Below are positions 1-58,598 of a stretch of DNA of 64,000 nucleotides, piece after piece; position 1 is the stretch's first letter; each line of letters begins with the position of its first letter. The notes under the pieces are model-generated. The model did not search any database, was not told the origin of the DNA, and was given only the letters and a program-made list of their open reading frames with translations. This stretch comes from Dictyostelium discoideum (taxonomy: Eukaryota), in assembly GCA_000004695.1 (NCBI GenBank), contig CM000154.2, positions 4,288,001 to 4,352,000 on the forward strand, given 5' to 3'. The translations under genes were made by a program, and so were the position numbers.

Positions 1-134
1 AAAAAAAAAAAAAAAGTTTTAAAGTAATTTCTAAATCACCAATGGTTGTTTTATATGATCTTTTATTATTAAAATCTTAAATATTATTCAAATTAAAATT
101 TGGTACAATTTATTTTTTATTTTAAATTTTTCTT

Positions 135-171
<37 letters not shown>

Positions 172-391
172 GTAAATAAAAAAAAAAATACAAAAAAACT
201 TAAACAATTAAAATCAAGATGTCATCAATTAATTTATGATCATGAAAAAGATAAGGATTAATTAAGAGCTGGTATTAATTTGGTTAAAATTAATTGTTAA
301 AGCTAAAGAATTGTTTTCTCAAAAAAAAAAAAATCTATTTAAAAAATGAAAAACTAAATAGAGTAATGTGTTTTTTATTATTACTATTTTT

Positions 392-1636
392 CTAATTTTG
401 TTTGATAATTTCCACAGATTTATCTAATTTACAAATATCTAATGATAGATTGAAACTTCTTTGTAAAATAATTTTTGGTATATTTTTGGGTATAGATCCT
501 TCAATTAGTGGTGTATTCATTATTCCTAATTTTAATTGCTTTATTGAATTTGGAATGATTCCTGGTGTTAGTTGATGTTTGAATCCTTGATAAATACTGA
601 GATTTGTTACAGAATTCGGCATTGAAATTACTTCTAATGATTGTTTAGTATCATATAAATATAAGAATTTCACTCCATCACTAATTATACCTGGTGTTAT
701 TAATTGATCGAAACCATTACACAAATATAAATTAGTGACTGATTTAGGAATTGATCCGACAATTAATGGTGATTTAATATTACAGAACCATAAATATTTT
801 ACACTTTCTGGTATAATACCTGGTGAGAGTAATTGGTTAAAACCACTATTGAACCAAATGGATTCAACTGAATTTGGAATTGAACCAATCTTTATTTCAC
901 TTTTAATATTATTTAAACTTAACTCTTGTATACCTTCAGGTATCAAAGAAATGGTACCGATTGATAATGGTTGATTAAGTCCATCTTCTAAACAAAGATA
1001 TTCAACAGTTTTTGGAATTGATCCAATCTCCAATGAATGTTTGATATCTCCTAAATTTAAAGATCTGACCCCTGAGGGTATAATACCTGTTTTTAATGAT
1101 TGGGAAAATCCATCACAAACATACAAACTTTTTACAGAAATAGGAATCGAACCAATCTTTAATGGCTTTTTAATGTCGTGTAGACATAAATATTCGACAC
1201 TATAAGGAATAACACCAGCTTCAATTGATTGACTAAATCCATCATAAAAAGTTAACCGCCTAACACTCGATGGTATTGATCCTTTTACTAATGGTGTTTT
1301 AATATCACATATCTCTAAATATTTAATACCAAGTGGTAATACATGTGGTTCTAAACTTTCTTTGAATCCATCTAATAATATTACATGCTTAATATTTTCA
1401 TTTGATTTAAGTTTTAATAAACTACCACAATCTTCTCCAAGTGCAACTTTATCATTATCTTTTGGTAATTCAATGTTCTCTGAATATATATAATACTTTT
1501 CACCAATACCAAATTCTATTTTTAAAATTAAAATGTTAATATACTTTTATTATTTACATATATACTTGTAATTAAACATACTCTCTATAAATTTATAATT
1601 ATTTTCATCAATTTCAATCTTAAATTTTTCATTTAG

Positions 1637-1717
<81 letters not shown>

Positions 1718-2442
1718 AAGTTCATATATTAATTTTAAATTATATTTAATATCATCAATTATCTGGTTATCGAATTTAATGATTTGATTATTATATTCTT
1801 TTAATTTATTTTGATTATTGATATTTATATTATTTTTTAATAATAATAATGATTGTTGATATTGTTTGATTAGCTGAATTGTATCAGTACCTTTATGATA
1901 ACCAATAATATCTTCATCACCATAATCATAATCATCATAATTTTGTTGAACATTATTAATATTTTTTATGGAATTATTTAATTTATCAATCATTGAGTTA
2001 TTATTATTATTGTTATTATCATTATCGATTGAAGAGGTAATAGTTGTATTTATTAATGTATTTTCTTGGAATACTGTTTCTAATTGTTTTTCGATGTCTA
2101 ATTAAAGTATTGAGAGTATGTGATGAAGTTTTTTAAATTCATCTTTAAGTAATTTTTTATTTTCATCATTTTGTGATTGAATTTCATTGAAAATTTCATT
2201 GGAATCTTTTAATGTTTGTTTATTATTTCCAATTCTTTCAAGTAATTTTGGATAAACATCATCTTTAAAATTATTCATCATTGAAATAATGTTTGATGTT
2301 GATATTGGTTCTAATCCATGACGATGATGAGAACCATTACTGGATGCACATAAAATACAACATGGTATTAATTTACAATCTAAACATAAAAGTTCAACAT
2401 TTTTACTTGGATGAATTGAACATTTTTTATTATTATCATTAC

Positions 2443-2495
<53 letters not shown>

Positions 2496-2563
2496 TTATT
2501 ATTATTTGCTAATGACATCATAATATAAATTAAAAAGGTGTGATAATTTTTTCTATTGTTCAA
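392..2563 (-). pseudogene. Degenerate copy of the B-box/coiled-coil/FNIP-repeat gene. The B-box and coiled-coil part is 1550-2563 and the FNIP repeats are 392-1546.
   Basis: The reading frame is the same as in the intact copy at 4030-6295, but an in-frame TAA at 2099-2101 (GAA to TAA) splits the B-box ORF into 2102-2563 and 1550-1993. The 3' splice acceptor used in copy 2 (ctAG) is mutated here to ttGG. The FNIP part (stop-to-stop 392-1546) has no ATG near its N-terminus. The poly-N tract is shorter than in copy 2. Confidence 0.6.
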
Positions 2564-4029
2564 ATGAAGTTATTATTGGTTTTTGGTGGTAAAAAAAAAT
2601 AAAAAAAAAATAAAAAAAAATTATTTCCAAAATCTTTAAGTTTTTATTAAAAAAAATTTAAAAAATTAATTTAAAAATAGAAAATGATTAAAAAAAGTGG
2701 TCGTAAACAACAATTTTTTACATTTTTATTATCTTTTTTCATATTATGTATAATGTGCCTTTGATTATTACAAATAATTTATTAGAATTAATTCATTCTT
2801 TTTTCTTTTTTTTTTTTTATGGTTAACCTAAATAAATTTAGGATGCAGCTTCTATAACTGGTTTCACTGATTTTTAATAAAAAAAAAAAAAAAGATGTAC
2901 AATTAAAATATTAATTTCATGATAATGTTTTTTGGAAATTAATTTTTTTTTTTTTTTTTTTTTTTATTACATTATCATGAAATTGTTGAATTTGAAGATG
3001 ATATATATCTTAGTTCTTCTTTTAAAGTGTAAACTTCACGTTTTAAAGTGGAAACTTCATTATTTAATTTATTGTTTTCATCCAATAGCGATTTATATTA
3101 ATTTTGATTTGGTAATTGATCTCTTAAACCATAAAAACATAAAAAACTTGGTATACATCCATCCAAAATATGATTTTTTATATCAGAAAAGTGTTTACCT
3201 TTTGGAAAAAAAAAAATGAAAAATAAAATTAAAAAAAAAAATGAAAATTTTTTTTTTTTTTTTTTTTTTGGTCATTTTTAATAAAATTTAAGGGAGTCAC
3301 TTTGCATGTAAATTATTGTTTAAAAAAAAAAAAAAAATTTTCAAAAAAAAAAAAAACATTTTTTCTAATAATATTTAAGGGAGTCGCTTTAAAAAAAAAA
3401 ATAAAAAAAAAAAAAAAGGCGAAATTTTTAGACCCAACCACCTTAGTAATATTAAAAAAAAAAAATATCTGATTGGTGCAATTATAATTAATTAACTCTA
3501 GTAAAGAGTAATGATTTTTTTTAATTTTTTTCTTTTATTTTTATTTTATTTTATTTTATTTTTTAATAAATAATTAATAGAAATAAAAAAAAAAAATACA
3601 AAAAAAAAAAAAAAAATAATAAAAATGGATGAAGCGCCAGCAATTAAAATTTTAGATAATATAATAAACTCAACAACATTGATGTAGTACTATTGATGTA
3701 AGAATTGAAAAAAAAGATTAAGAAATTAAACAAGAAACTTTACAATTAAAATCGTTTCAATTGAAGAAGAGATTAAAAACTCAAACAATTAAAATCAAGA
3801 TGTCAACAATTAATTGATGATTATGAACAAGATAAAGATTTAATAAGTGTTGGTATTAATTTAGTTGATGAATTAAATGTTGGGGCTATTCTCAAAATGG
3901 TTTTAAAATTGAGAATTTGTTAATTAATTATTATTTTAATTAAAACAATAAAAAAAAAAAAAAAAAAAAATCAATTTAAAAAAATAAAAACTTAATACAG
4001 TAATATAATTATTTATTACTATTATTCTA

Positions 4030-5280
4030 TTATAATTTAATAATTTCTACAGATTTATCTAATTTACAAATATCTAATGATTGATCAAAATTATATTGTA
4101 AAATAATTTTTGGAATATTTTTGGGTATTGATCCTTCAATTAGTGGTGCATTCATTTTTCCTAAATTTAATTGCTTTATTGAATTTGGAATGATTCCTGG
4201 TGTTAGTTGATGTTTGAATCCTTCACAAATACTGAGATTTGTTACAGAATTTGGTATTGAATTCACTTCTAATGAAATAGTATCACATAATTGTAAGAAT
4301 TTCACTCCATCACTAATTATACCTGGTGTTATTAATTGATCGAAACCATTATAGAAATTTAATTCAGTGACTGATTTAGGAATTGATCCAACAACTAATG
4401 GTACTTTAATATTATAGAAGAATAAGGATTTAACACTATCTGGTATAATACCTGGTGAGAGTAATTGGTTAAAACCATCATTAAACTGAATGGATTCAAC
4501 TGATTTAGGAAGTGATCCAATCTTTAATTCACTTTTAATATTATTTAAACCTAACGATTGTATACCTTCAGGTATCAAAGAAATGGTACCGATTGATAAT
4601 GGTTGATTAAATCCATTTCCTAAATTTAGATGAGCAACAGTTTTTGGAATTGATCCAATCTCTAATGAGCGTTTGATATCTCTTAAAATTAAAGATCCGA
4701 CCCTTGAGGGAATAATACCTGGTTCTAGTGATTGGGAAAATCCATCACAAACATGCAATTGAGCTACAGAATTAGGAATTGAACCAATCTTTAATGGCTT
4801 TTTAATGTCGTGTAGATATAACCATATAAAACTCGAAGGAATAATACCAGCCTCAATTGATTGATTAAATCCATCATGAAATGATAACCGCCTAACACTT
4901 GATGGTATTGATCCTTTAACTAATGGTGTTTTAATATCACATATATCTAAATATTCAATACCAAGTGGTAATACACCTGGTTCTAAACTTTCTTTAAATC
5001 CATCTAATAATATTACATCCTTTAAATTTTTATTTGATTTAAGTTTTAATAAACTACCACAATCTTCTCCAAGTGCAATTTTATAATTATAAATATCTTT
5101 TGGTAATTCACTGTCCTCTGAATATATATAATATTTTTCACTAGTACCAATTTCTATTTTTAAATTAAAATGTTAATATACTTTTATTATTTACATATAT
5201 ATACTTGTAATTAAACATACTTTTTATAAATTTATAATTATTTTCATCAATTTCAATCTTAAATTTTTCATTTAATTTAC

Positions 5281-5353
<73 letters not shown>

Positions 5354-5659
5354 ATTATTATTCTTATCATTATTATTAATAAGTTCATAAATTAGTTTTA
5401 AATTATTTTTAATACCATCAATTGTTTGATTATCGAATTTAATTATTTGATTATTATATTCTTTTAATTTATTTCGATTATTGATATTAATATTATTTTT
5501 TAATAACAATAATGATTGTTGATATTGTTTAATTAGTTGAATTGTATCAGTATCTTTATGATAACCATTAATATCTTCATCACCACAATCGTAATCATCG
5601 TAATTTTGTTGAATATTATTAATATTCTTAATTGAATTATTTAATTTATCAATCATTGA

Positions 5660-5743
<84 letters not shown>

Positions 5744-6295
5744 ATTATTATTATTATTATTATAATTATTATTACTAATATTTTTATTATAATTACTATT
5801 ATCATTATCATTATCATTATCGATTGAAGAGGTAATAGTTGCATTTATTAATGTATTTTCTTGGAATACCGTTTCTAATTGTTTTTCAATATCTAATTCA
5901 AGTATTGAGAGTATGTGGTGAAGTTTTTTAAATTCATCTTTGAGTAATTTTTTATTTTCATCATTTTGTGATTGAATTTCATTGAAAATTTCATTGGAAT
6001 CTTTTAATGTTTGTTTATTATCTCCAAATCTTTCAAGTAATTTTGGACAAATATCATCTTTAAAATTATTCATCATTGAAAGAATGTTTGATGTTGATAT
6101 TGGTTCTAATCGATGACGATGATGAGAACCATTACTTGATGTACATAAAATACAACATGGCATTAATTTACAATCTAAACATAAAAGTTTCACACTTTTA
6201 CTTGGATGGATTGAACATTTTTTATTATTATTATTATTTATTAATGACATCATAATATAAATTAAAAAGGTGTGATAATTTTTTCTATTGTTCAA
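4030..6295 (-). CDS. B-box zinc finger, coiled-coil, poly-Asn, FNIP-repeat protein of about 733 aa. Exons are 5205-6295 and 4030-5140, with an intron at 5141-5204.
   Basis: ORF 5165-6295 has a B-box-like Cys/His cluster ([35 protein letters not shown]) followed by heptad-like repeats and (AAT)n. The downstream frame 4030-5172 is open for 380 codons of FNIP-type repeats (GSIPxSVxxLxFxxxFNQ) but has no ATG. A 64-nt AT-rich intron (GTATAT...ctAG) joins the two in frame: donor phase 2 and acceptor phase 2 recreate an AAT codon. The likely start is the second ATG pair (MMSL at about 6253). Confidence 0.6.
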
Positions 6296-7575
6296 ATGAA
6301 GTTATTATTGGTTTTTGTGTTGTAAAAAAAAAATGAAAAAATGAAAAAAAAAAAAAAAAAAAATTTCTTAAATCTTTAAGTGTTTGATTTTAAATTTGTG
6401 ATATAAAATTAAAAGTAATTTTAAAAAAATTAAAAAAGATTATAAATTAATTTATTTTATTCTCAGGTCAATGCAATATGCTCAATCTAAAATTGATTCA
6501 AAATGATATCAAATCAATTATGTGTTTTTTTTTTTTTCTTTTATTTAAATATCACTATATTAATATTAAAATTTTAATCACCTAAATTAATTTAGGATGC
6601 AGCTTCTAAAACTGATTTACTATTTAATAATAAAAAAAATGTTTTAAGGGTAATTTCTAAATCACTAATGGTTGTTTCATATGGTCTTTTATTAAAATTA
6701 ACATTGGTGCACTTTTGTTGGAATTTTTTTTTTTTTCACCTTTTGACTATATATTTTTAATATCTAATTGATACTATTTTTAAAAAAAAAATTAGCAAAA
6801 AATAAAAAAAAGTTAATTAATTAAATCAAAGAAAAAGTCAAAATTTGTATTTTTTTTTCTTAATTTTTATTCAAAAAATTTATTTTTCACTTAATTTTTT
6901 TTTATTTTTTTATTTTTTTTTTTTTTAATACAAATAAAAAAATAATAAAAATGGACGATGCATTATATTTGATTTTTTTAATTTTTAATACCAACATATT
7001 TAAAACTGGATTATATATATATATCGTTAAATCTTCAAGTGGAATTCGTAAAAAAATTAATATCTTAAGTCTTTAAGCGGGATTCACAAAAAAAAAAAAA
7101 AAGTGAATCCCACACCAAAAAATTGTTGTTTGACCCAATTGTATGAGTTATTTGATGTTTTAAAACACAAAGAAATGAAACAATTAAAATCAATTCAAGA
7201 AGAAAATGAAAAATCAATCCTTGCTCAAGGTGGAAATATCAATTTAATGGAAAAATTTTAAAATCAAATATAAATCAAAATAGATTCTCATAATTTATAA
7301 CTAAAACTTAAACAATTCAACAATTAATTAATGATTCTTAACAAGATATAGGTTTATTAAGTGATGGTATTAATTTAGTTGATAAAAAAAAATGCTGGAG
7401 CTAAAGAATGGTTTAAATCAATTGATTTTTAATTAATAATTAAAACAATAAAAATAAAAATAAAAATAAAAAATAAAAATAAAAATTTTATTTAAATTAT
7501 TTATTTATTTATTTAATTTAATTTAATTTAATTTATTTGAATATAATTTTTGATGTGTAATTAATTATTACAAAA

Positions 7576-8810
7576 TTACATATCAAAACCAAAGCTTAAA
7601 CCAAAAATTGTAGTTTGGCCAATTGTATGAGTGAATAAACATTGAAGTGCACCACTTTGAGTTATTTGATGTTTTAAACCAATTTCTAATTGCCATTTTG
7701 TACCATACAATTTACTAATTCTTCTAATACCAAATTCAGTTGCAGAAGTTACATGAACGATCTTATAATGAATAGTTTCAAAGAATCTTGATCCTCTGGT
7801 AATTCTATTTTTATAATCAAATAAAAATGGTAATCCTAATATTGGTGGTCTATTATCATCATTATTATTACTATTATTACTATTATTACTAATAGCTGAT
7901 GGTGATGACGATGATGATAATGATTCATTTAAATTATTATTTACACTCATACTTCTACTAAATGAATTTGATTCATTATCACTATTTAAAACTTTATTAC
8001 TAAAATAATGATCAGAGAAATAACGTGACATATCACCTAAACGTGAAGTGATTTCTAATGATGATAAGAATGTATTCTTACCGAATTGAAAGAACATATG
8101 GTGTTTTAAAACTATACGATTTGATTTCTTGTTGATTGGGATATCAAATTTTAACCAACCATATCTACCGAAATAAGTGAATTTTGGATTTATAAATGGT
8201 GATACTATCATACGACTAAATGAATGAACTCTAACACCAACTGCACCGCCAACTTGGAAAACACTTGCAAAATTACGTTTATAGATACTATATATGTTTG
8301 GTATAACAATACCAATATCACCCTCCCTTGATCCACGTGGTGTTTCATACCATGATATTGAGGTTTTAATAGGTGGTGGTGAATGTAATGATGATCTACT
8401 AATATTGTTGCTATTACCAACGCCACCGTAAAACCCATTAACTTGTTTTTCATATGTTACTTTTAATCTACTATCTAATGATCTAGCTGAAACTCTTAAT
8501 CCATCAAATAATGTATATTGTAAACATCCGAATATGCTACCTATATTATTTGTTGATGCTTGAAATAATTTAAATTTTGATGGTATATTTACTGGATCCA
8601 TTAAAGTATCCCTTGAAATATCAATTGGTAATCTTTTATTTAAATTATAATTATTATTATTATTGTGTTGTTTATTTGTAGTAGTATTATTATTACTATT
8701 ATTGTTATTACTACCACCACTATGTGTGGTTGATGTTATATTATTATTATTACTATTTTGATTATTTACATTTGATTTAATATTACTACTATTTAAATTA
8801 TTTATATTAC

Positions 8811-8844
<34 letters not shown>

Positions 8845-8919
8845 GTTATTTGTATTTGTATTACTATTATTTATATTATTTTCATTTGACTCGGTATGTG
8901 TAAAAAGTTTTTCGCTCAT
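7576..8919 (-). CDS. Hypothetical 447-aa protein with an Asn-rich N-terminus and a C-terminal half rich in alternating hydrophobic residues (beta-strand-like), ending ...TIFGLSFGFDM.
   Basis: Single long ORF with an ATG start. A 40-bp copy of its 3' end is duplicated at 7128-7170. Confidence 0.6.
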
Positions 8920-34111: not shown

Positions 34112-36310
34112 TTATGATGATGCAAGTTCTTGTTGATCTTGTAGTTTTTTCTTTGCAGCAGCTTTACCAACTAATTTCTTTGGTTTTGAAGTTTGTTGAG
34201 GTGCGGTGCCAGTTTCAACGAAATCGAGTATTATTTTGATAGTTTTGGTTTTAGTTTTATTCTTTGGAAGGTCATGAATTTTACAGTATTCTAATAAATC
34301 TGAAAGATTAAAGTTATTTTGTAAAAATCCTCTTTCAATTCCTTTCTTTATATAATCAAATGATGGGCATATCCATTTTCTATCATGAGTATAATAACCT
34401 TTAATCTCTGAAGACGCTGTTGATTGATAGTCCATTATATTATTATTATTATCATCATCATCATCGTCGTCATCATCCTCTGATAATAAACCATTACCAT
34501 TACCGTTACTACTTCCAAAATTACTAAAATTATCGTTTTGTTCTCTGTCTGATTCATTCTCACTATTTATTTCTACATCATTACTACTATTATTATTTTG
34601 AATACCATTACTATTATCTTCCTCTTCTTCTTCTTCTTGTTCTTCTGCTGCTGCTTCTTCGTTACCATTATTATTATCTTGTTTTCTTTTTCTTTTTCCA
34701 TTTGTTATTATTTTAGTTGTTTCTTTCTTTTTAGTAGTGGGCTTTGATTTTATTGTTGTGGAGGTTGATGTTTTTGCTATGGTAGATTTGGGTTTTGTAG
34801 TGGTTGTAGTTGTGGTGGTTGTTGTAGGGGTTGGCTTTGCTGTTGAAGCAGATTGGGCGCTACCGCTTCCTGGTTTTGATTTTTGTTCTGGTTGTAAATG
34901 TACAGGGTCCAATGGTAATGGTTTTCTCTCCCTTTTACCAGGAAGAGTTGGAGTTAATGGTTTATCTGATGATGGTTTATCCAATGATGATCTTAATTTC
35001 TTTTTTGGTTGTTCTGTGTTTGTTAAATTTTGTGATTTTTCGGTATTTTTTGTTGTTGATTGTACAGTTGTTGTTGTTGTTGTTGTTGTTGCTTGAGATT
35101 TTGATGTTTTTGGTGCTGGTTTTGATGGTGCTTCTGTTGGTGGTGATATTATAGTTGAGTTAGTTTTTGGTGCTATTATATTTGTTGGTGGTGTTGTTGT
35201 GGTTGTTGTTGTTGTTGCCTGTGGTGGTGTTGTAGTGGTTGTTGGTACTATGCCTGCAGTTTCAGTTGTTGGTGATTTAGTTGCTGGCTGTTTTTTAGTT
35301 GGTGCTTTTTTTGGTACACCCTTTTTAGCTTTTGATGGAGTTGTCTCTTTATTTGGTGAATTTGTACCACTATTGTCAGTGGGAGTTGTTGTTGTTGTTG
35401 TTGTTGCTGCTGCTATTGAGGTAGTGTTTGTCAATGGTGTTGTACTTGGAATTGGTGAAGTTGTAGAAGTAGTTGTGGTAGTATTAGTTGGTGGAACTAC
35501 TGTTGGAGTTGATGCAATTGTTGGAGTTGTAGTTGTAGTTGTTGTAGTTGTTGTTGGTGGTGGTGGTACTGCTGCGGTTGTTGTAGTAGTTGTTGTTGTT
35601 GCTGCTGCTGTAGTTGTAGTGTCAGGTGATTCTTCTAAATCATACATTGTACTCATGATTGAATCACATAGCGCACCCATATCATCTTTTATTTGAATTT
35701 TTAAATCTCTACAAAAGCTTTCTAAAGTTTTCTTATCTAATTTAAATAAAATTTTGAAGATACCTTGCATCATCATCTCCTCTTCTATTTTATATATCAT
35801 CTCATTGGTGTCTATGGAATTCTCTTGTTGGTCTAAACCTAATAAATTGAATGATTCTTTCAATTGTTTTGGATCTAGTATATATAATGTCTTTTTAATG
35901 TCTTTTCCTTCTTTAATAGTTGTACCAATAATCTGTGCAAATGATTCCGAATTTGGAATTGTTGTTAACCAACCATAAGATTCATCCCATATATTACTTT
36001 TAATAATTGGTAAATAATCTAATTTATTTATTACCATTGGTTTATTATTATTATTATCAGCTGTAGTTCCACCATTTGCAGTTAATTTATTATCTTGAGT
36101 TGTAGTTGCACCACCTTCTTTAGTTGTAGATGATGATGGTGGTTGCTGCTGCTGTTGTTGTTGTTGTTGTTGTTCTGCTGTGGTTGATGCTAATGTTGTG
36201 TTTGGTATTTTAAGTTCATTTAATGATTCAACTGCTAATTTAAGTGATTCTTCTGATAATTTTGCAAATGGTTGCATTATAATGTCAGCTGGTACAGCTG
36301 ATTCACTCAT
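34112..36310 (-). CDS. 732-aa hypothetical protein, probably nuclear, with Thr/Pro-rich and acidic low-complexity regions, a KRKRK motif and a conserved C-terminal domain (ICPSFDYIKKGIERGFL...SDLLEYCKIHDL).
   Basis: Long ATG ORF. Codon repeats such as (ACC)n and (GAA)n create multiple spurious antisense ORFs (34737-35978). Confidence 0.65.
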   Translation of the reverse strand: MSESAVPADIIMQPFAKLSEESLKLAVESLNELKIPNTTLASTTAEQQQQQQQQQQPPSSSTTKEGGATTTQDNKLTANGGTTADNNNNKPMVINKLDYLPIIKSNIWDESYGWLTTIPNSESFAQIIGTTIKEGKDIKKTLYILDPKQLKESFNLLGLDQQENSIDTNEMIYKIEEEMMMQGIFKILFKLDKKTLESFCRDLKIQIKDDMGALCDSIMSTMYDLEESPDTTTTAAATTTTTTTTAAVPPPPTTTTTTTTTTPTIASTPTVVPPTNTTTTTSTTSPIPSTTPLTNTTSIAAATTTTTTTPTDNSGTNSPNKETTPSKAKKGVPKKAPTKKQPATKSPTTETAGIVPTTTTTPPQATTTTTTTTPPTNIIAPKTNSTIISPPTEAPSKPAPKTSKSQATTTTTTTTVQSTTKNTEKSQNLTNTEQPKKKLRSSLDKPSSDKPLTPTLPGKRERKPLPLDPVHLQPEQKSKPGSGSAQSASTAKPTPTTTTTTTTTTKPKSTIAKTSTSTTIKSKPTTKKKETTKIITNGKRKRKQDNNNGNEEAAAEEQEEEEEEDNSNGIQNNNSSNDVEINSENESDREQNDNFSNFGSSNGNGNGLLSEDDDDDDDDDNNNNIMDYQSTASSEIKGYYTHDRKWICPSFDYIKKGIERGFLQNNFNLSDLLEYCKIHDLPKNKTKTKTIKIILDFVETGTAPQQTSKPKKLVGKAAAKKKLQDQQELASS

Positions 36311-39796: not shown

Positions 39797-40937
39797 TTAA
39801 AAATCTTCAGTTAAAAGATAAATTGAAAAATCTGATTGAAGATTAAAGAATTTTGGTTTTGGATTAAAAATTAAATCAACACAACCATCATTAAATTGAT
39901 TGAAAGGTTTAGTGACAAAAGAACCATTAGAGAATAAAGTTGGAGGTTTTAATTCAAATTCATTAATCGAAAGGTAATCTAAGGATTGTAAGATGACAGC
40001 AACTTCTTTTAACATTGCAGGAGAATATCTTTGAAGTCTATGAGTGATTTTCTCTAAAGTTGAACCTGGGTATAAATTTACATTTGTTAGGAAATCGAAA
40101 AACATCTTATTGAATTGACTTCTATTAACTTTACCAAAAACATCAATCCAAGGTTTAATCAATTTCTTTTGTTTATAACTTAAATCAACAAATGGTTTAA
40201 GTTGTTGTTGGTTTTGTTGTTGTTGTTGTTGTTCAACATCAGTTTGATTATTATTATTATTATCAACATCATTTAAATTATTATCTTTGAGATATTGTTG
40301 ATGTAAAGTATAAAATATAGGTATTAAAGAGTCCATGAAAAATTCTTTTGCGACATAAATTTTATGGTGGAATGTGAAATGAGTATCAACAATACCTAAT
40401 GATTTTAATTCTAAAATATAGTTTAATAAATTTTGATAAATATATTGTGAATGATCAATGATATATTCCTCTTCTTTTTGTTCTTGACTATTATTAATTT
40501 TTTGTTCATCATCAATATTATTATTATCAACATCGCCATCTTGATTATTTGATTGATTTAACTTTATTATTAATTTACTAGAATCATCATAATGAATTAA
40601 TTTTTGAAGAATTTCATTAGAATCTGAATTTGAAATTAAATGATTAATGATTTCAATTCTCTTTGCACCATTAACATTTTTACTTTTGATAATTTTGAAA
40701 ACTTCTTGAACCATTAAACAAAACCAACCAATGAATTTACCAGTTCTATCTGAAATATCAATAATTTTTTCAATCTTTAATTTAAATAATTCTTTAAATT
40801 CTTCTGAAATGAATTTATTTTCAAATTCATTTAAAATTAATTCTTTATCATTCATTGTTGTAGTTGTAGTTGTAGTTGATTCATCTGTTTTTCTTCTTTT
40901 ACTATTTTCATTATCATCTTCTTTATCATTATCATCA

Positions 40938-40984
<47 letters not shown>

Positions 40985-43900
40985 TGATGATTTAAAGATT
41001 TCTTGGAATTTTAATTTTTCAGTTGATAATGGATCATTTATACCAATAACATCAGGATTAATTGCTCTTTTTCTTTCATTTTCAATATAGGAATAATCTA
41101 TATAATCTTGAAGTTTATAGGATACACCAATTTTATTAACAATAGATTCTAAACGTTGATTTGAAGCATCTCTAAGTTTTGGAGCTTTTTCAAGTTTTGG
41201 ATCAAATGTTGATTTAATTAAAATATTTGGTGAAACTTTGTTATTGGTTAAAAGGTATAACATTGAAGAGACAGATCCACCACTTGTTAATGGATCATAT
41301 TCGAATAATTGAACATCATCCTCATCACCATTGTTAGTGATACCAACTTTACTAAAAATTTGTTGTTTACTAGCAGCAGCAGCAGTATGATCATTTACAA
41401 TTGGATATTCTTTAATCATTGAAAGGAAAACACGATTTTCATCAAGGAATTCCCTATTGTAACTATTTACTTTGTAAAGAATCTTTTGAATACAAAAACC
41501 AATTGAACGTTCAGTTGATTTGGATTTAACATTCTTTATGATTTTATCATAATACAAACCATCCATAACTCTATTTGAATCCTTTTTACTTATTTGATCA
41601 TTTTGAGAACCAATCATTTTAATACTAAGATTGTAGGAATAATCATCTTCAGGCATTGAAATCAAGAAAAAGATTTTATCCTTCATCATTGATTCCGAAA
41701 CTGAATCGAATTTACTCTTTTCAAAGGTTTCTAAATTTGTATTCTTTGGTATACTTGTATTGAACATTGAATTGAATTCGAGGATAGTTGAGGGTAAATC
41801 TGCCATTTGATCACTTGATTTATGGAATGTTTTATAGGATGGATATTTCTTTACCAACAAGAACATTCTTCTATAACAAAGTGTACCATTTTTATCGATT
41901 TGTTCACCCAATTGGTCCCAAAGAGGATTCAACATTGATGGAATACCCGATGGTGTGATATAGTATTCACTATTGGTATGATTTTTAGCACCTTCTGGAA
42001 TTGTTTTAAAAAAGTTACCAAATACTTCAGTATAAGTTTTTAAAAGTACAGAATCTTCCAATGGACTCCATTTAAATCTACGATATGGTTGGAAATTTTT
42101 CTTAATTTGATCTCTTTTTTCTTTTGCAGATTTACTAAGTAAACTAATTGTTGTTTTTGGTCTAGTACCTCTTTTTCTAATACCTTTCTTTTTGAAAATT
42201 GAATCATCTTTACCATCTTCATCATTTTCATCATCACCACCGTTGTCACTATCGTCATCACTATCAGTACCACTTTCATCACCTTCATTCTTTTCACCAT
42301 TTGCTTTTCTTTTTCTTTTTTGTTCCAACTTTTCTTTTGCAACTTTTCTATAGAATGTTAAAACTTTGTAACCTGAAACATTGAAATCTCTAGCCAACTG
42401 TTTAATTTCCTCTTTTGAATGTGATTTTTTATCGGTGAAAATTTTATACAATTGTTGTTTAGTTGAATCGGTCAATTGATCCTTTGGTACACCCCATAAT
42501 AGGATATTATATAATGCTGGAATTTTATTACAAATGAAATCATCTGGTGGTGGTTGCGAACTGTTTCTATCTCTTGGTAACAATGAAAGGAATTGTAAAT
42601 CTGACCAATAAAGTTTCAATTGTTCAAATGAATTGAAATTGTATTTCTTTATTGAACCATTATCAAAGAGTAATTGAATATCTCTATGAAAAGTGTACTC
42701 TGTATAACCATAAGTAAAACCTTTTGAAATCAAACCCAATCTATTCAATAATGATACCATATCAGAGATCTTTGCAAAGAATTTACCCGATTGAAACAAT
42801 GAATTCTTTATTGGCTTTGGTAAATCAATAATTAATGTACCCTTTTTAATATGTTCATCCAATCCTGGTATCTCTATATTTTGTGAAACAATCTTTAAAT
42901 AATCATCAATTGGTAAATATTTTAATAATAAATTTAAAAATATTCTAGTTGATTCATTTAATACTTCTTTATATAATACCAATTGTAAATTACTTTCATC
43001 TTTAACTTCATTATTATTATTATTATTATTATCTGTTGCTGTTGTTGATGTTGTTGATGATGGTGATCCTTCTTTCATTTCAATATCATTACTTTTTGTT
43101 TTATTTTCAGTATTAACACCATTATTTCTATGTAAGGAACCATTTGTAAATTTAACAGCGAATGACCAAATGAATTGATGTAATAATTTAGAACGAATGA
43201 CTAAACCTTTAACGAAACCATATCTTGATGCAATTGATCTTGAACGAGCATGTACTGTAAATAATGGTTTTTCAATTGAATTCTTAATTACTAAATCTAA
43301 ACGTTGATTATCATCTTCATAAGCATCACGTACAAAATGGTTACCATTATCATCTTCATCACTATCATTATTATTATTATTATTATTATTATCATCTTCA
43401 TCATTATTATCATTATTATTGTTATTATTATTTTTTATTGATCTATTTCTATTTCTATTTTTTAAATAACTATATGGATTATTTTCATTATTTAAATTTT
43501 GATAACTACCAGATAAATTTGATTTTAATACTCTATTTGATGGAATATCTTTAATGGTTTCAATGATTTCCATGATTTCAACATCATCTAATCTATAATT
43601 TTGAGCATCATAAACAAAGAATATCTTTCTATGAGATCCTTTAAGTGATTGAGTGTATAATCTAATTAAACCAACCATTTTCTCAATGATTAATATGTCG
43701 ATAATTCTTTTCAAAGTTTTATTATCCATTGAAGTATCACCTATATTATGTTGATGTAATAACAATGTCCATAGGACACAACCACGTGCTTCCCTAATAC
43801 GATTATAAACTGATTCTTTACGTTGTGAAAACAAAACGGTTTGTGGCATTGATCTCTTTGCTGGTGTTGGTAATGATCCTTGAATCACTGTTGTTATAGT

Positions 43901-46132
43901 TGTATCATCATCTGATTCAACTAAAACTCTTTCCTCAACTTCTTTTTTAATATCATACTCTAGTTGTTTATTTTTTTTTCTTTTTTTTTTACTTTCTTGA
44001 GTAGAACTACCATCATCATTATTATTATTATTATTATTATTTTCTTGAGTATTATTATTATTATTATTATTAGCTTCTTGATTATCAACAACACCATTTT
44101 CAATTGCTTTTATTATTTCTTTATCATTATTAAGAATTTCATTATAAACTCTATTACTTTCAGATATTAAATCTTCATAATTTAAAAGACGACCATTAAA
44201 TCTTGAGATTGGTGTATTAATATCTCTATGTAATAAATTTGGATCTTCTTCAGTTGTTAGTTGATTATCTTTTGGTAACATATCAGCTGTATCTGCAAAG
44301 ATTCTATAGGTTAATTGTCTACCCACTGTTTCTGGTACAATTTTAACTCTATAGGAAATAATTAAAGTTTTAAGTACATGTGCAACGAATTTACGAGATA
44401 ATTCACCACATTTAATACAAATCTCTTTTGCTGTTATACCATCAGTATCTGCTTGTCTAATCATATTAAAAACCTGTTGATAAATTGGTTGTTCCATAAT
44501 TAATTTTGAAGATGATGATAAACCAACCAATGATAATTCTTCACCTTCATCCTCATCCTCATCATCCTCACCACCACCACCACCATTACCTTTACCAGGT
44601 GTATTCTTTGATTTCTTTGCACTTGTTGGTGTTGTTGGTTTCTTTGGTGTGCTTGAAGAATCACCATCTTCATCATCACCATTACCACCACCATTTTCAA
44701 CTAAATTCCAAAACTTTTCACCTAAACCAATCTCTAATTTAATTATGAGTGAATTACCTCTAGTTTCTTGTGAAATGAAATCATTTTCAAATAACCATTT
44801 CTTTACTCTTTTAAATGTTGTTGGTGAAATATTAAACTTCTTTTCAATATCTTTCATTGATAATATATGAGATGGTTCAATTTCTAAATATCTTAAAAAT
44901 GCTGCTTTAAAATAGAATTTTGGTTTAAATCCTTCCTTATCATCTAATGAAAAATATCTTGGTCTATAATATTTCTTTAAAAATAATCTACCAGTTGATA
45001 TCGCAATACCTGATGCACTCTGTGTACCCATAACTTCTACTTTTTCACTTTTTATAAATATATATATAAAAATTAGTAATTTTATTTTTATTTTATAATA
45101 ATAATAATAATAAAAAATAATAACTTACATAACTCCTTTTAAACATAAATCTTTAATTGGTGGAAATATACAACGTGGATCAATATTAAATTCTTGTGAA
45201 AGATCTCTAACGATTGAACCTTCAAATCTAGATTGTGAAACTCTTTCTAAAATTCTCCATTGAATTTGTGATATTTTATTTAATTGATCATATGGTATAC
45301 CAACTGCAAGTGATTGATTATAAGTATCTGCAACATAAACATATCTTTGAGAGATTTCTAAATATGGTGATTTATTAATTTGTTTGATATCATTATCATT
45401 AATTTCATTCTTATTTGTTTTATTATTATTAACATTATTGTTATTTTCATTATTTTCATTATTATTATTATTATCATTCTTCTTTGGAGTTAATATAGTA
45501 CTAATTGCACCACCAGCTACCCAATCTCTAACAGAGGTTCTAATAGGTGTTGAAGATTTAAAAATAATAACTTCTTTCTTTTTTGATCTATCACCATTTT
45601 CAAATTCATCTTGTTCATTGTAATCTTCATTATCACTAATATAACCACCATCTTCAATACTACCATTTCCTAAGAATTTTCTTGGTGTAAATTTCTTTGG
45701 AGTTGGTAATCTAGTTGGTGTTGCTTTAATTGGTGTTGATAGGTTAATAGTTTGTTGTGAAGATTGTTGTGATTGTTGTGTTTGTTGTTGTTGTTGTTGT
45801 TGTTGTGAAGATTGTTGTGGTTGTTGTTGTGAAGATAGAATTTCATCATCATCACCCATTTCAACATCTTGGGTTTGTTGTTGTGATTGTTGTTGTTGTT
45901 GTTTTTGTTGTTCATTTTCAGGTTTATATAATGGATTTTCCTTTAATTTAATTGATTTATGATTTAATAATAACCTATGAATATATCTCTTTGTTTGTTC
46001 TGTTAATTTAATTTTTGTACCATTTGAGAGTTCTGTATCGTTTAAATGATACCATAAATCCTCAGATGTGCATCCAAATGAACAATTGGTGGCAATTTCT
46101 CTTAATGCCTTGGCCAATATTTCATCTAACAT
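39797..46132 (-). CDS. General transcription factor IIIC B-block-binding subunit (TFC3/GTF3C1-like), about 2084 aa. Exons are 45129-46132 and 39797-45047, with an intron at 45048-45128.
   Basis: The N-terminal B-block-binding winged-helix region (LDEILAKALREIATNCSFGCTSEDLWYHL) and the overall size match GTF3C1. ORFs 45125-46132 and 39797-45031 are joined by a GTAAGT donor at 45128 and an aaaaAG acceptor at 45049-45048, phase 2, which recreates ATT. Confidence 0.7.
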
Positions 46133-50750: not shown

Positions 50751-51997
50751 CTCCTATCAAATTAATTAAATGAAATAATAATAATAATAATAATAATAGA
50801 TTTTTGAAAGAACATCAAAATGGTTTGAATTAGTTGGTTTAAAGAAAGAAGAAATTAAAATCGTTGAGTTTTCAACTGACGAACCAGAACGTATCTTTGT
50901 ATTAGATGCTGAAAGAACTTTCTCAAATGATATTAACAAAAAGAAATTAGTTAAAATTTTAACCCACTTAAAAAAAGAGTAAGATTAAACTATTATTATT
51001 ATTATTATTACTACTATATATCACTCTCTTCCTCAGTTATTAATAATAAAATTTATTATTATTATTTTTTATATATAGATTTGGAGATTATCAACAAGGT
51101 TTATCATTTGTTGCAAGTTTCTTAATGTTAACAATGGATGAAAGTGAAAATGTTGCATTAATGACTAAAATTAATTCAATGTTACCAGGTTATTGGAAAC
51201 ATGAAGCAATTGACTTTGGTACAAGTGCTTTCACTTTATATCATATCTTACAACAAACTCATCCATCTGTAAATTTATAAAATTATTATTAATTATTATT
51301 AAAATATAGATATAGATATTAATTAATATTTTTTTATTTTTTTTAGATTACAAAACATTTAGAAAATAATTGTATTGATGCAGGTACATTTTGTCAAAAA
51401 TGGTTTTTAGGTTTATGTGTTCATTTATTACCATTTAGATATTTATTCCAATTTTTTGAAAAGTTTTTAGTTGGTGGTGTTGAATATTTATACAAGTTTT
51501 CATTGGCATTGTTTACAGTATTAGAAAAGAGAATTTTAGATGCAAAGAATCCACAAGTGATCTTTGCAATTTTACGTTTGGATGAAAGTGAAATCAAAGA
51601 TGAAGAGATTTTCCAACAAATTCTCGATAAATCTGATACTATCGATATTTCTACCTTTGATTTAAAGGAGATCAGTAAGGATGTCTATGAACGTAACTTA
51701 AAGAAACGTATTGAAAGTGCTCATAAGGTTCATGCCAATGTCGAAGAGATTGAAGATTGTCAATGGTGTCTTGATAATTTCCCAGAGTTTTATTGTTTAG
51801 AGTGTAAACAACTCGTTTGTCAAGATTGTTTAGATGATACTCCAACCGGTCCAAATGAAACTCATCAAGAAGATTCTCATACTCTTATCTCTATGGAAGA
51901 GTATGAAAATGATAGAGATAAATATAAACAACCAAAATCAACCACTACAACTACTGTTGAAAAATTAACAAAAGATTTAGAAGACTTAAAAGTTTAA
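50558..51997 (+). CDS. TBC-domain Rab GTPase-activating protein with a C-terminal B-box-like zinc finger, about 370 aa. Exons are 50558-50650, 50800-50978, 51079-51268 and 51347-51997.
   Basis: TBC arginine finger (IFVLDAERTF) and glutamine finger (GDYQQGLSFVASFLML). C-terminal cluster CQWCLDNFPEFYCLECKQLVCQDCLDD. Splice sites are GTACAG/aatAG (phase 0), GTAAGA/atAG (phase 2) and GTAAAT/tttAG (phase 0). All junctions are in frame with ORF 51503-51997. Confidence 0.65.
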
Positions 51998-56170: not shown

Positions 56171-57073
56171 ATGAAAGTAGAATTAGATATTAGTGAATTA
56201 GAAAAAATATTTTTCAATAAAAAAATTTTATTTATTAAACTTTTAAATTCAATAATAGTTGTATCATTTAGACATATTTCAATTTATTCTCATTCACCAT
56301 TTACAACCAATTTCAAAGAAACTAGTAAAGATATTTTAAATATTTTGAAAAAAAATGGTTGTTTATCATTTCTTAGAGGTTCAATTTTTTATGATTTCTC
56401 CACTATGCTTGAAACAGCAATTAGATCATATATATTGAAATATTCATTCGAATTTGGTATTTTTCGAAATGGGGATAGTAAATCATTACGATTATCAAAT
56501 GAAATTTTGAAATTGTATTTACAGTATCCTAAAAAGATGTTATTCGATTGTTTAGTTTATTCAAAATCAACTATAAACATAACAGGTATTGTAAAATTGT
56601 TTTTATATTATTCAACATCAACATCACCATCACCATCATCGTCATTATCAATATTATCAGTATTATCACCATCGTCATTAAGTAAATTATATGATAGTAT
56701 TTATCATGGCTCATTTTATTCAATAATGTTGATGTTGTCATCTAAATTTATTGAAGATTATGTTTGCAATAAATTAGACTACTATTTAAATAAATATTTT
56801 AATAAATATAATCATGATAATAAAACAACCAGAATCATTATTAGATCATTGGTTAAATCAATAATCGTTTCACCATTTTATGTTATTGATTCAATTTATC
56901 CAAGTTTAGTAATCTCATCTTTAGTATTGGATCAATCAATCCCTAGATTGGTTGACCCAATTTCAATAGCAATTACAATTTATAAAAATCATGGTTTTAA
57001 TTACTTTTATAAAGGTTTATTACCACAATTTACTCTTGAATTATTTACATCTTATTTTAATTCTAAAAATTAA
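56171..57073 (+). CDS. Hypothetical 300-aa protein, Ser/Ile/Leu-rich.
   Basis: Single ATG ORF. No recognisable motif. Confidence 0.5.
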   Translation: MKVELDISELEKIFFNKKILFIKLLNSIIVVSFRHISIYSHSPFTTNFKETSKDILNILKKNGCLSFLRGSIFYDFSTMLETAIRSYILKYSFEFGIFRNGDSKSLRLSNEILKLYLQYPKKMLFDCLVYSKSTINITGIVKLFLYYSTSTSPSPSSSLSILSVLSPSSLSKLYDSIYHGSFYSIMLMLSSKFIEDYVCNKLDYYLNKYFNKYNHDNKTTRIIIRSLVKSIIVSPFYVIDSIYPSLVISSLVLDQSIPRLVDPISIAITIYKNHGFNYFYKGLLPQFTLELFTSYFNSKN

Positions 57074-57104
<31 letters not shown>

Positions 57105-57361
57105 ACAGCAAATCACAAGATATTTTTAAAAAAGTTCAAAGAAAAAAAAATAAAATAAAAATAAAATAATAAAGATATTGTTTTTTTTATTCATTCCAAA
57201 AGATTATTATTAAATTTTTTTTTTTTTTTTTTTTTTTTCTTTTTCTATCTGGTTATATTTTATTTGAAAATAATTTTATTTATTGCTAGAAATTAAAAAT
57301 ATGATGGTGTGCGGAGGGGAGGTGGGTAGTTAAAAATGGGGAGTTTGTCGTATGACCCTAG

Positions 57362-57402
<41 letters not shown>

Positions 57403-57566
57403 AAAGCTTTTTTTTTTTGAATAATTACAAAAATGACGAAGTGTCAAATTTAAATTTGACAGTTTCAGACCTTTTTTTTTGTTTATATTATTAGAAATTA
57501 AGATTTTTAGTTTGATCCGTTGTTAGGGATCTTTTTTATCAACAACACTTTAATTAATTTTAATTT

Positions 57567-57607
<41 letters not shown>

Positions 57608-57694
57608 TTTAAATTCCTTTTTTTTTTTTTGTTTTTTTTTTTTTTTAAAACAAAAAATAAAATATAAAAAAAAAATTTTAAAGTAATAAAAATT

Positions 57695-57972
57695 ATGTCG
57701 TCACTAAAACTTCAAGTTAATAGACCACTAACTCCTACACCGACTCCAACACCAAATTCAACTCAAACTACTGTAACACCATTAAAAAGAAGTTGTTATT
57801 TAGGTCGTGCTGGTCCTTACCATGATGAGTTACCACCTGGAAGAACTAGAGCTGAGGTTGAAGAAGCCAAAAAATTAGGAATTTGCTTAGAAGATATTAC
57901 AATTTATAAAATTACAATTAAAAGAGGAATTATAAATAAAGCAACTGATTTAAATGGTTTATCTGATGGTTT

Positions 57973-58067
<95 letters not shown>

Positions 58068-58100
58068 GTTTATAATTTAATAATTTAATTATTTAATTAT

Positions 58101-58156
<56 letters not shown>

Positions 58157-58598
58157 TTTATTTGTGATAGGATATTGTAAAATATTTAAATCATATAGAG
58201 ATGAATTTGGTGATCAAATTAGAATTAAATTATTTAAAACTCAGGTTTGTAAAAAAACATTAAAACCAGAATGGAATTATGAAGGAATTTATTCAATTTT
58301 TGAAAGTTGTCAAAATTTACGTTTAGAACTATGGGATAAATCTTTACTAAAGAATGATTACATTGGTTGTAAATCAATCTATCATAAAGATATTGAGTTT
58401 GGTGAACCATTAGAAGTTGATTTACAACTTTCATATAAAAAGAAAATTGAAAAAATTGTTGGCTCTGTCGTTATTTCCGTTGAAAAATTAGAAGTAAACG
58501 AAGAAAATAAACAAAAATGTTTAAATGGAACTAATCTTTATGATAGACTTCATGTTAAACCAAGAAAAATTAGAGTTCCTTCAAATTTCCAAAATTAA
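57695..58598 (+). CDS. C2-domain protein of about 233 aa with a Thr-Pro repeat N-terminus. Exons are 57695-57968 and 58171-58598.
   Basis: A GTTTGT donor at 57969 and a tgatAG acceptor at 58169-58170 (phase 1) restore GGA. The junction yields the C2 calcium-binding-loop motif ATDLNGLSDGYCKIF. The 202-nt intron is largely (TTA)n. The ORF track reads the microsatellite through as poly-Tyr. Confidence 0.7.
57974..58066. repeat. (TTA)n microsatellite inside the C2-gene intron.
   Basis: Perfect trinucleotide run. Confidence 0.9.

Follow-up and report, generated by a model that had tools for sequence, protein, structure and literature searches.

Two tandem B-box/FNIP-repeat genes of Dictyostelium discoideum: an intact copy, an apparent recent pseudogene, and divergence at strand positions of the repeats

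The window analyzed here is a stretch of 64,000 nucleotides (nt) of Dictyostelium discoideum contig CM000154.2 (chromosome 5; assembly GCA_000004695.1, positions 4,288,001 to 4,352,000 of the forward strand), with a G+C content of about 20% and many poly-Asn runs. At its start lie two tandem minus-strand genes, termed copy 1 and copy 2, each coding for an N-terminal B-box zinc finger, a long helix (putative coiled coil), and a C-terminal array of FNIP repeats. We estimate a probability of roughly 0.8 that copy 2 is an intact gene, copy 1 a recent pseudogene, and both are members of the already described dictyostelid B-box/FNIP family. This family has 241 members in D. discoideum and represents a lineage-specific expansion (PMC4334915); in a related species, FNIP outnumbers all other Pfam domains (bioRxiv 10.64898/2026.03.01.708701). 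Both genes are ordinary, uncharacterised members of this published family (OG5_126643), and the layout is not a new discovery, because the family is already in the literature (PMC4334915, PMC4554924). New here is the finding that the differences among four copies, two of them located beyond the start of the window, concentrate at solvent-facing strand positions of the repeats.

Two tandem copies, their intron, and the nonsense codon

The gene models and the tracts that distinguish the two copies are listed below; (AAT)n tracts were located by exact run search and Tandem Repeats Finder (TRF).

392-2521, minus strand: copy 1, disrupted gene of 687 codons with one in-frame stop (spliced translation)
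1582-2521, 1516-1581, and 392-1515, minus strand: exon 1, intron (intact), and exon 2 of copy 1 (spliced translation)
2102-2104, minus strand: TAA nonsense codon 139 of copy 1, opposite GAA 5897-5899 of copy 2 (sequence comparison)
1640-1714, minus strand: (AAT)25 of copy 1, encoding poly-Asn ahead of the FNIP domain
2444-2506, minus strand: N-terminal (AAT)n of copy 1, adding 21 residues before the B-box; copy 2 is without it
4030-6253, minus strand: copy 2, intact gene of 718 amino acids (aa) (spliced translation open; gene of equal range in assembly GCA_054883475.1)
5221-6253, 5154-5220, and 4030-5153, minus strand: exon 1, intron, and exon 2 including the stop of copy 2 (spliced translation)

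In a blastn comparison of positions 1-3700 with 3701-7600, the segment 194-2025 aligns with 3775-5688 at 85.8% identity including gaps (179 mismatches in 1920 columns), 1952-2441 with 5744-6236 at 91.1%, and 2486-2694 with 6218-6446 at 82%. Upstream pieces of the units also pair, namely 2826-2886 with 6580-6639, and 1-217 with 6626-6829 (71%). The register offset between the copies ranges from 3581 to 3795 nt because their (AAT)n tracts differ in length. These alignments bear out the tandem duplication of two minus-strand units that had been proposed in an earlier note on this DNA, and the poly-Asn tracts are indeed unequal, since exact run search and TRF give different (AAT)n lengths and positions in the two copies. 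The identity of more than 90% claimed for them applies to the 91.1% segment, but overall the value is about 86-91%.

The surroundings of the window start were inspected in the second assembly, GCA_054883475.1, to whose sequence CM142511.1 a 9-kb part of the window aligns with one mismatch and a few homopolymer-length differences; a 447-aa open reading frame (ORF) at 7576-8919 is encoded identically there. Beyond window position 1, this assembly first has a gene for a short-chain dehydrogenase, encoded on the opposite strand, and then two further units:

L002 14356-15810 (GCA_054883475.1): unit C, a FNIP-only copy
L002 16267-17846 (GCA_054883475.1): unit D, with intact-looking B-box, helix, and intron

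Unit C retains the start codon and an N-terminal (AAT)n run, immediately after which come the 20 final codons of exon 1, and it looks as if the B-box and helix had been deleted by recombination between two (AAT)n tracts; at least two frameshifts and two additional FNIP repeats are also present in this unit. In unit D, the C-terminal cap follows after only some five FNIP repeats, and its public annotation runs to 19063 with a 501-aa product. The array thus extends upstream, with variable repeat numbers and several decayed members. An upstream extension had been anticipated from the window; the two degenerate units behind the dehydrogenase gene, which differ in repeat number and carry lesions, fit the birth-and-death mode of evolution likewise proposed from it.

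Copy 2 allows two in-frame introns, either 5141-5204 (GTATAT...CTAG, 64 nt) or 5154-5220 (GTATGT...ATAG, 67 nt, phase 1). The latter, together with 1516-1581 in copy 1, is probably the correct one. The matching GTATGT...TAG intron of copy 1 (66 nt) keeps the frame, and with it the TAA is the sole lesion of copy 1 in 687 codons. The GCA_054883475.1 annotation of copy 1 consists of two genes coding for 138 aa and 511 aa, respectively; the length of 511 aa and the span of 1602 nt fit only the frame from ATG 1993 with the 66-nt intron. In the related gene DDB_G0289849, a fit of the protein on the locus revealed one intron only, of 61 nt, which directly follows the 'KFFK' codons plus one base and so occupies the homologous place in the same phase. 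Units C and D keep GTATGT and a TAG acceptor, in frame, and unit D, like copy 1, is without the CTAG. The GTATGT donor moreover carries a G at +5, as does the usual GTAAGT donor.

The earlier note had placed the intron at 5141-5204 and regarded the loss of its acceptor in copy 1 as a second lesion. This intron is in frame in copy 2 too, and model P0003 of Dictyostelium dimigraforme reads 'KRMYDFRFYLYLEN' here, resembling the SMFNY stretch that would then be coding. However, its donor GTATAT is without the +5 G, its CTAG acceptor is missing in copy 1 and in unit D, both of which are in frame with GTATGT...TAG, the DDB_G0289849 intron has the position and phase of GTATGT, and the annotated 511-aa product is compatible with the 66-nt intron alone; we therefore consider 5141-5204 very improbable. 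The CTAG-to-TTGG difference that had been taken for a lost acceptor is real, but as it falls inside exon 2 of the better-supported model, it is a plain substitution and not a splice lesion. The product length of 733 aa given previously was counted from a TTG at 6295, whereas the first ATG of copy 2, at 6253, leads to 718 aa. The annotated product of copy 2 is 672 aa, implying removal of another 138-141 nt, probably in the poly-AAT tract; that model was not recovered and has not been adopted here.

At the site of the TAA codon of copy 1, unit D has GAA, as does copy 2. The GAA-to-TAA change had been recognized before, but assigned to 2099-2101 instead of 2102-2104. Over the B-box and helix, the ratio of replacement to silent substitution rates (dN/dS) between copies 1 and 2 is 0.17, with a silent rate (dS) of 0.19. 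This low ratio in the stop-bearing half indicates that most of the divergence arose under constraint, and hence that the stop is of recent origin. With one TAA only, after residue 138, and a dN/dS of 0.17, copy 1 is thus, as far as the sequence can tell, a recent pseudogene next to an intact copy 2, as had been suggested.

Alternatively, copy 1 might be alive, split by the stop into a 138-aa protein consisting of the B-box only and a 511-aa helix/FNIP protein starting from ATG 1993. Exactly these two products are annotated in GCA_054883475.1, there is no second lesion across the 687 codons, and FNIP proteins without B-box do occur in the family, e.g., unit C. However, the two genes were annotated automatically, the former coding region would have to supply a separate promoter for the 511-aa frame, and the stop falls mid-way in the conserved helix, while the scarcity of lesions is explained equally well by a recent stop; we regard a split but functional copy 1 as improbable. 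Two points nevertheless weigh against the interpretation of copy 1 as recent pseudogene and copy 2 as intact gene: the two assemblies in which the TAA was found (that of the window and GCA_054883475.1) represent nearly the same strain, and sequence logic, together with the annotation by others, is what supports the intron and the view that copy 2 is active.

The B-box/helix module and the FNIP solenoid

The domains of the copy 2 product correspond to the following segments:

6113-6217, minus strand: B-box zinc finger, aa 13-47 (Pfam zf-B_box, conserved ligands, model)
5774-6094, minus strand: long helix, aa 54-160, putative coiled coil directly after the B-box (AlphaFold2, family profile)
5282-5761, minus strand: second half of the helical region, between the poly-Asn tracts 5663-5761 and 5282-5350 (exact run search, TRF)
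4036-5082, minus strand: FNIP leucine-rich-repeat (LRR) solenoid of 17 rungs, with 14 canonical repeats of 20-25 residues (Pfam, AlphaFold2, Foldseek)

The zinc ligands of the B-box are arranged as C13-x2-H16-x8-C25-x2-C28-x5-C34-x2-C37-x6-H44-x2-H47 (pattern CHCCCCHH). In an alignment with 21 relatives, there are no substitutions at C25, C28, C34, C37, H44, or H47, and almost none at C13 and H16. The Pfam zf-B_box model scores 24.2 bits on the N-terminal fragment and 23.0-23.6 bits on the full-length protein, the cut-off being 24.1 bits; the FNIP model (PF05725) matches with E values of 4e-57 (copy 2) and 1.8e-58, in 9-10 double-repeat stretches. The profile check recommended in the earlier note therefore yields both domains. 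The top protein matches are Dictyostelium proteins carrying PF00643 and PF05725, and among the aligned relatives a B-box is present in 21 of 22 and FNIP in 20 of 22. An N-terminal B-box, C-terminal FNIP repeats, and closest relatives of the same architecture are the features by which both products are assigned to OG5_126643. Neither a search with the full-length protein, which was swamped by poly-Asn words, nor one with the FNIP part retrieved an identical or 90%-identical protein from the collection; as the collection lacks these products, it says nothing on orthologs in other strains or species.

In the AlphaFold2 model of the N-terminal part, the B-box region has predicted local distance difference test (pLDDT) values of 84-89. 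It is followed by one helix comprising residues 54-160, with a pLDDT of about 79-87 until approximately residue 140. The poly-Asn segments aa 151-198 and 291-328 are disordered, with shorter, low-confidence helices between them. The best Foldseek match of the B-box is the B2 box of MuRF1, with a root-mean-square deviation of 1.6-2.1 Å, which is not significant (E 0.1-0.18); likewise, the matches to the B-box structures of MuRF1 and MID2 (E 0.1-0.56) are not statistically significant.

Profiles built from the family do match TRIM proteins. A whole-family profile matches the B-box/coiled-coil chains of TRIM3, TRIM28, and TRIM5 with E values of 4e-6 to 2e-4 over 130-150 positions. A profile confined to the B-box and helix (141 positions) matches TRIM3 with 2.9e-7 over positions 4-130 and TRIM5 with 4e-5 over positions 4-123; it also matches TRIM72 and TRIM28, as well as the B-boxes of MID1/2 and TRIM54/63 at 5e-5 to 5e-4. 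With TRIM3, TRIM5, TRIM72, and TRIM28, 80-90 helix residues are aligned in addition to the B-box, so that for the first three the similarity reaches the coiled coil. Three observations count against the relationship. The N-terminal AlphaFold2 model, calculated as a monomer, is poor overall (pLDDT 63.6), a search of PDB sequences with the N-terminal 147 aa as a single sequence gave nothing significant, and Foldseek with the N-terminal model gave E values of 0.1 or worse throughout. The link to TRIM proteins accordingly rests on the family profiles; at that level, the B-box/helix module is homologous to the B-box/coiled-coil region of TRIM proteins, in agreement with the TRIM-like layout proposed earlier.

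RING models gave no match at E values up to 1 in either protein, and none in 22 relatives, all of which begin a few residues ahead of the B-box. Between 6254 and 7575, where an upstream RING exon might be sought, there is no Cys-rich reading frame. The similarity of B-box and coiled coil to TRIM proteins could in principle mean that these genes code for true TRIM E3 ligases with the RING in an unrecognised upstream exon, but in view of these negative results we attribute practically no probability to that idea. The absence of a RING finger asserted in the earlier note thus holds, and the module is a RING-less TRIM-type B-box/coiled coil, which lacks the RING that membership in the TRIM family demands.

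For the FNIP exon, AlphaFold2 run on a 32-sequence alignment returned a model with a pLDDT of 92.7, a predicted template modelling score of 0.89, and 17 short strands about 21.5 residues apart, corresponding to the approximately 17 repeats per array counted previously. The best Foldseek match of the solenoid is CroV588 (6nyr; E 6e-15), followed by CroV539 and the ectodomains of Toll-like receptors. Two types of repeats alternate, (xDGF[NS]Q...PGIIP) and (xDIKxPL...GSIP); alternate repeats have GF[NSD]Q after the strand, the others IKxPL, and the 'FG' pair of FGxxFN is not conserved. With 14 repeats of 20-25 residues and 17 strands, the domain belongs to the LRR class with repeats of about 22 residues, hxxhxhxxxFNxxhxxxIPxx, which forms a curved solenoid.

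Divergence between the copies and a possible role

Between copies 1 and 2, dS is about 0.16, and dN/dS amounts to 0.79 in the FNIP part as compared to 0.17 in the B-box and helix. The 14 canonical repeats were aligned in register as IPxSVxxLxLxD..., and the four x positions of the strand motif (VxxLxLx), which are positions 6, 7, 9, and 11 of the repeat or 2, 3, 5, and 7 in LRR numbering, were taken as a site class. At these x positions, copies 1 and 2 show 30 of 56 possible differences, versus 26 of 217 elsewhere (Fisher test, 2.5e-10); one x position differs in 12 of the 14 repeats. The concentration at x positions recurs in all six pairs among the four cluster units (P 4e-4 to 2.5e-10). In the six pairs, dN/dS at x codons is 0.62-11 versus 0.27-0.52 at the other codons, with similar dS in both classes. 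In the model, the x positions lie in or beside the predicted strands, alternating with conserved core Leu/Phe, and they correspond to positions 3 and 5, which crystal structures place on the concave face (PMC9525666). The divergence at these positions would fit a diversification of the predicted binding surface.

The same clustering might also reflect the weak constraint that acts on x positions in any LRR protein, rather than selection for new specificities. X positions are the least constrained ones in all LRR classes (PMC9525666), and one or more of the compared copies are pseudogenes. Speaking against selection are, furthermore, the dN/dS of 0.62 at x positions in one pair, the nominal significance of values >1 in only two of the six pairs, which are non-independent (P 0.03 and 0.017, uncorrected; the other four tests are not significant), and the fact that the site class, though equivalent to the standard x positions of LRRs, was fixed after the pattern had been seen. 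On the other hand, five of the six pairs have point estimates above 1, with 2.9 and 11 in the nominally significant ones, and the remainder of the repeats stays at 0.27-0.52 with dS alike in both site classes. Because the pairs are non-independent, some copies are pseudogenes, and the site class was chosen afterwards, relaxed constraint is a serious rival, to which we assign a chance not far short of even.

The closest relatives in a sister species are the D. dimigraforme proteins P0001, P0003, and P0064 (ACTA71_000308, _000309, and _000325), numbered as near neighbours on one contig. Inspected by eye at the protein level, their internal FNIP repeats are nearly identical save at those strand x positions that are variable in the window copies.

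Replacement rates at or above the silent rate at the x positions are the pattern expected of a recognition family, and they suggest residues for mutants in a search for ligands. The products have no signal peptide or membrane segment and would therefore be cytosolic. The B-box and helix might act as a RING-less, TRIM-like scaffold for self-association, probably as a coiled-coil dimer, while the concave sheet of the solenoid would bind a protein partner. Copies of differing binding specificity, some of which decay, could then arise through duplication, altered numbers of repeats, and substitution at exposed strand positions. The partners may be cytosolic regulatory proteins, by analogy with AreA, the only family member studied, which binds Atg101 and restrains autophagy.

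The 'immune-type' role raised in the earlier note is an analogy. A review on cell-autonomous defence in Dictyostelium lists only one TRIM homolog, which is TRIM37-like, and the term 'FNIP' is absent from the paper (PMC5758549). Speculatively, B-box/coiled-coil/FNIP proteins may be for Amoebozoa what TRIM and LRR immune sensors are for animals, i.e., RING-less scaffolds whose concave face would be under positive selection in tandem clusters and which would recognise changing cytosolic targets of pathogen or non-self origin, with a connection to autophagy as suggested by AreA-Atg101 and TRIM5-LC3; we consider this proposal unlikely rather than likely to be correct. As part of the same speculation, the (AAT)n tracts on either side of the modules may be sites at which recombination takes out or exchanges the B-box and helix, as unit C suggests. 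If the pattern at the x positions holds family-wide, Dictyostelium would have in this family a large number of candidates for cytosolic recognition proteins that could be tested.

The locus as such adds little: the genes form a single small cluster in a model organism whose genome is fully sequenced, and the published family to which they belong exceeds 200 members. Two results add to it modestly, namely that the similarity to TRIM proteins reaches into the coiled coil and that the divergence is site-specific; the former supports the view of a RING-less TRIM-like scaffold over that of an isolated zinc finger.

Neighbouring sequences and comparison with known systems

The flanks of the units and one mapped gene complete the list of features:

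1-217, minus strand: resembles the upstream flank of copy 2 (6626-6829, 71%), trace of a further unit boundary (blastn)
194-285, plus strand: duplicated 3' flank common to the units, present again at 3775-3866 (88%) and 7289-7380 (70%) (blastn)
56255-58595: DDB_G0290601, AX4 protein, about 100% identity (mapping of the protein to the window)

The window had been thought to open inside a further unit, but positions 1-217 instead resemble the upstream flank of a unit, with the dehydrogenase gene lying beyond. On the 3' side of each B-box/FNIP gene, there are remnants of a small plus-strand frame (194-390, 3640-3960, and 7130-7450; e.g., '...LKQLKSRCQQLIDDYEQDKDLISVGINLVDELNVGAILKMVLKLRIC'). It is interrupted by stops in all three copies and seems to be the relic of a gene duplicated along with the unit. 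Only upstream of copy 1, a minus-strand stretch at 2930-3220 resembles the tail of a coiled-coil protein ('LDENNKLNNEVSTLKREVYTLKEELRYISSSNSTIS', then two stop symbols); this stretch, which includes a 21-nt tandem duplication at 3020-3067, has no counterpart upstream of copy 2.

Pfam scans of the other ORFs of the window gave nothing relevant to the B-box/FNIP genes. A 164-aa ORF at 51503-51997 (plus strand) has a Cys-rich segment with a zf-B_box match below threshold (21 bits, E 4e-4) and weak matches to FYVE and RING models, and may be an exon of another zinc-finger gene. The 1744-aa ORF at 39797-45031 (minus strand) matches DUF7646 above the Pfam cut-off, and more weakly DUF7647 and the extended winged-helix domain of GTF3C1; it probably codes for the large subunit of TFIIIC. 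A 732-aa ORF at 34112-36310 (minus strand) contains long Thr/Pro-rich runs and is the source of a local G+C peak (0.33) and a strong AT skew. Two ORFs of 921 aa and 886 aa elsewhere in the window are unrelated to each other.

Within the family, DDB_G0289849 and DDB_G0290679 are the best database relatives of the window copies (44-51% identity) and resemble them in domain order, the eight zinc ligands, the FNIP type, and the position of the intron. There is no difference in kind: no listed member is as near to either window copy as the other copy is (about 81% protein identity in the FNIP part), and one window copy is disrupted. AreA (DDB_G0279871) likewise has a B-box followed by FNIP repeats, but differs by an extra DUF4559 domain and is only remotely related; DDB_G0279877, the neighbour of areA, is a distant match of copy 2 (28% identity). 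Autophagic flux rises when AreA, a binding partner of Atg101, is lost, and the study describing it noted HHpred matches to the B-boxes of TRIM proteins (PMC4554924).

Metazoan TRIM proteins, which have the RING/B-box/coiled-coil (RBCC) layout, share with the window genes a type 2 B-box, a long helix directly after it, and a variable C-terminal binding domain. Their RING is missing from the window genes, which consequently have no E3 ligase module; RING-less TRIM proteins are known as well, examples being pyrin/TRIM20, TRIM14, TRIM16, TRIM29, and TRIM44. The window genes differ further in that their C-terminal LRR solenoid is not among the C-terminal classes of metazoan TRIM proteins, poly-Asn linkers break the helical region, and the dimer is only putative.

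The solenoid itself has its closest structural counterparts in CroV588 and CroV539 of Cafeteria roenbergensis virus (6nyr, 7zal; PMC9525666), which likewise form a solenoid of repeats of about 22 residues (Foldseek E 6e-15, template modelling score 0.68-0.70; profile E 2e-110). The viral proteins consist of repeats only, with a regular FGxxFN in each unit, whereas the window genes alternate two types of repeats and join them to a B-box and a helix.

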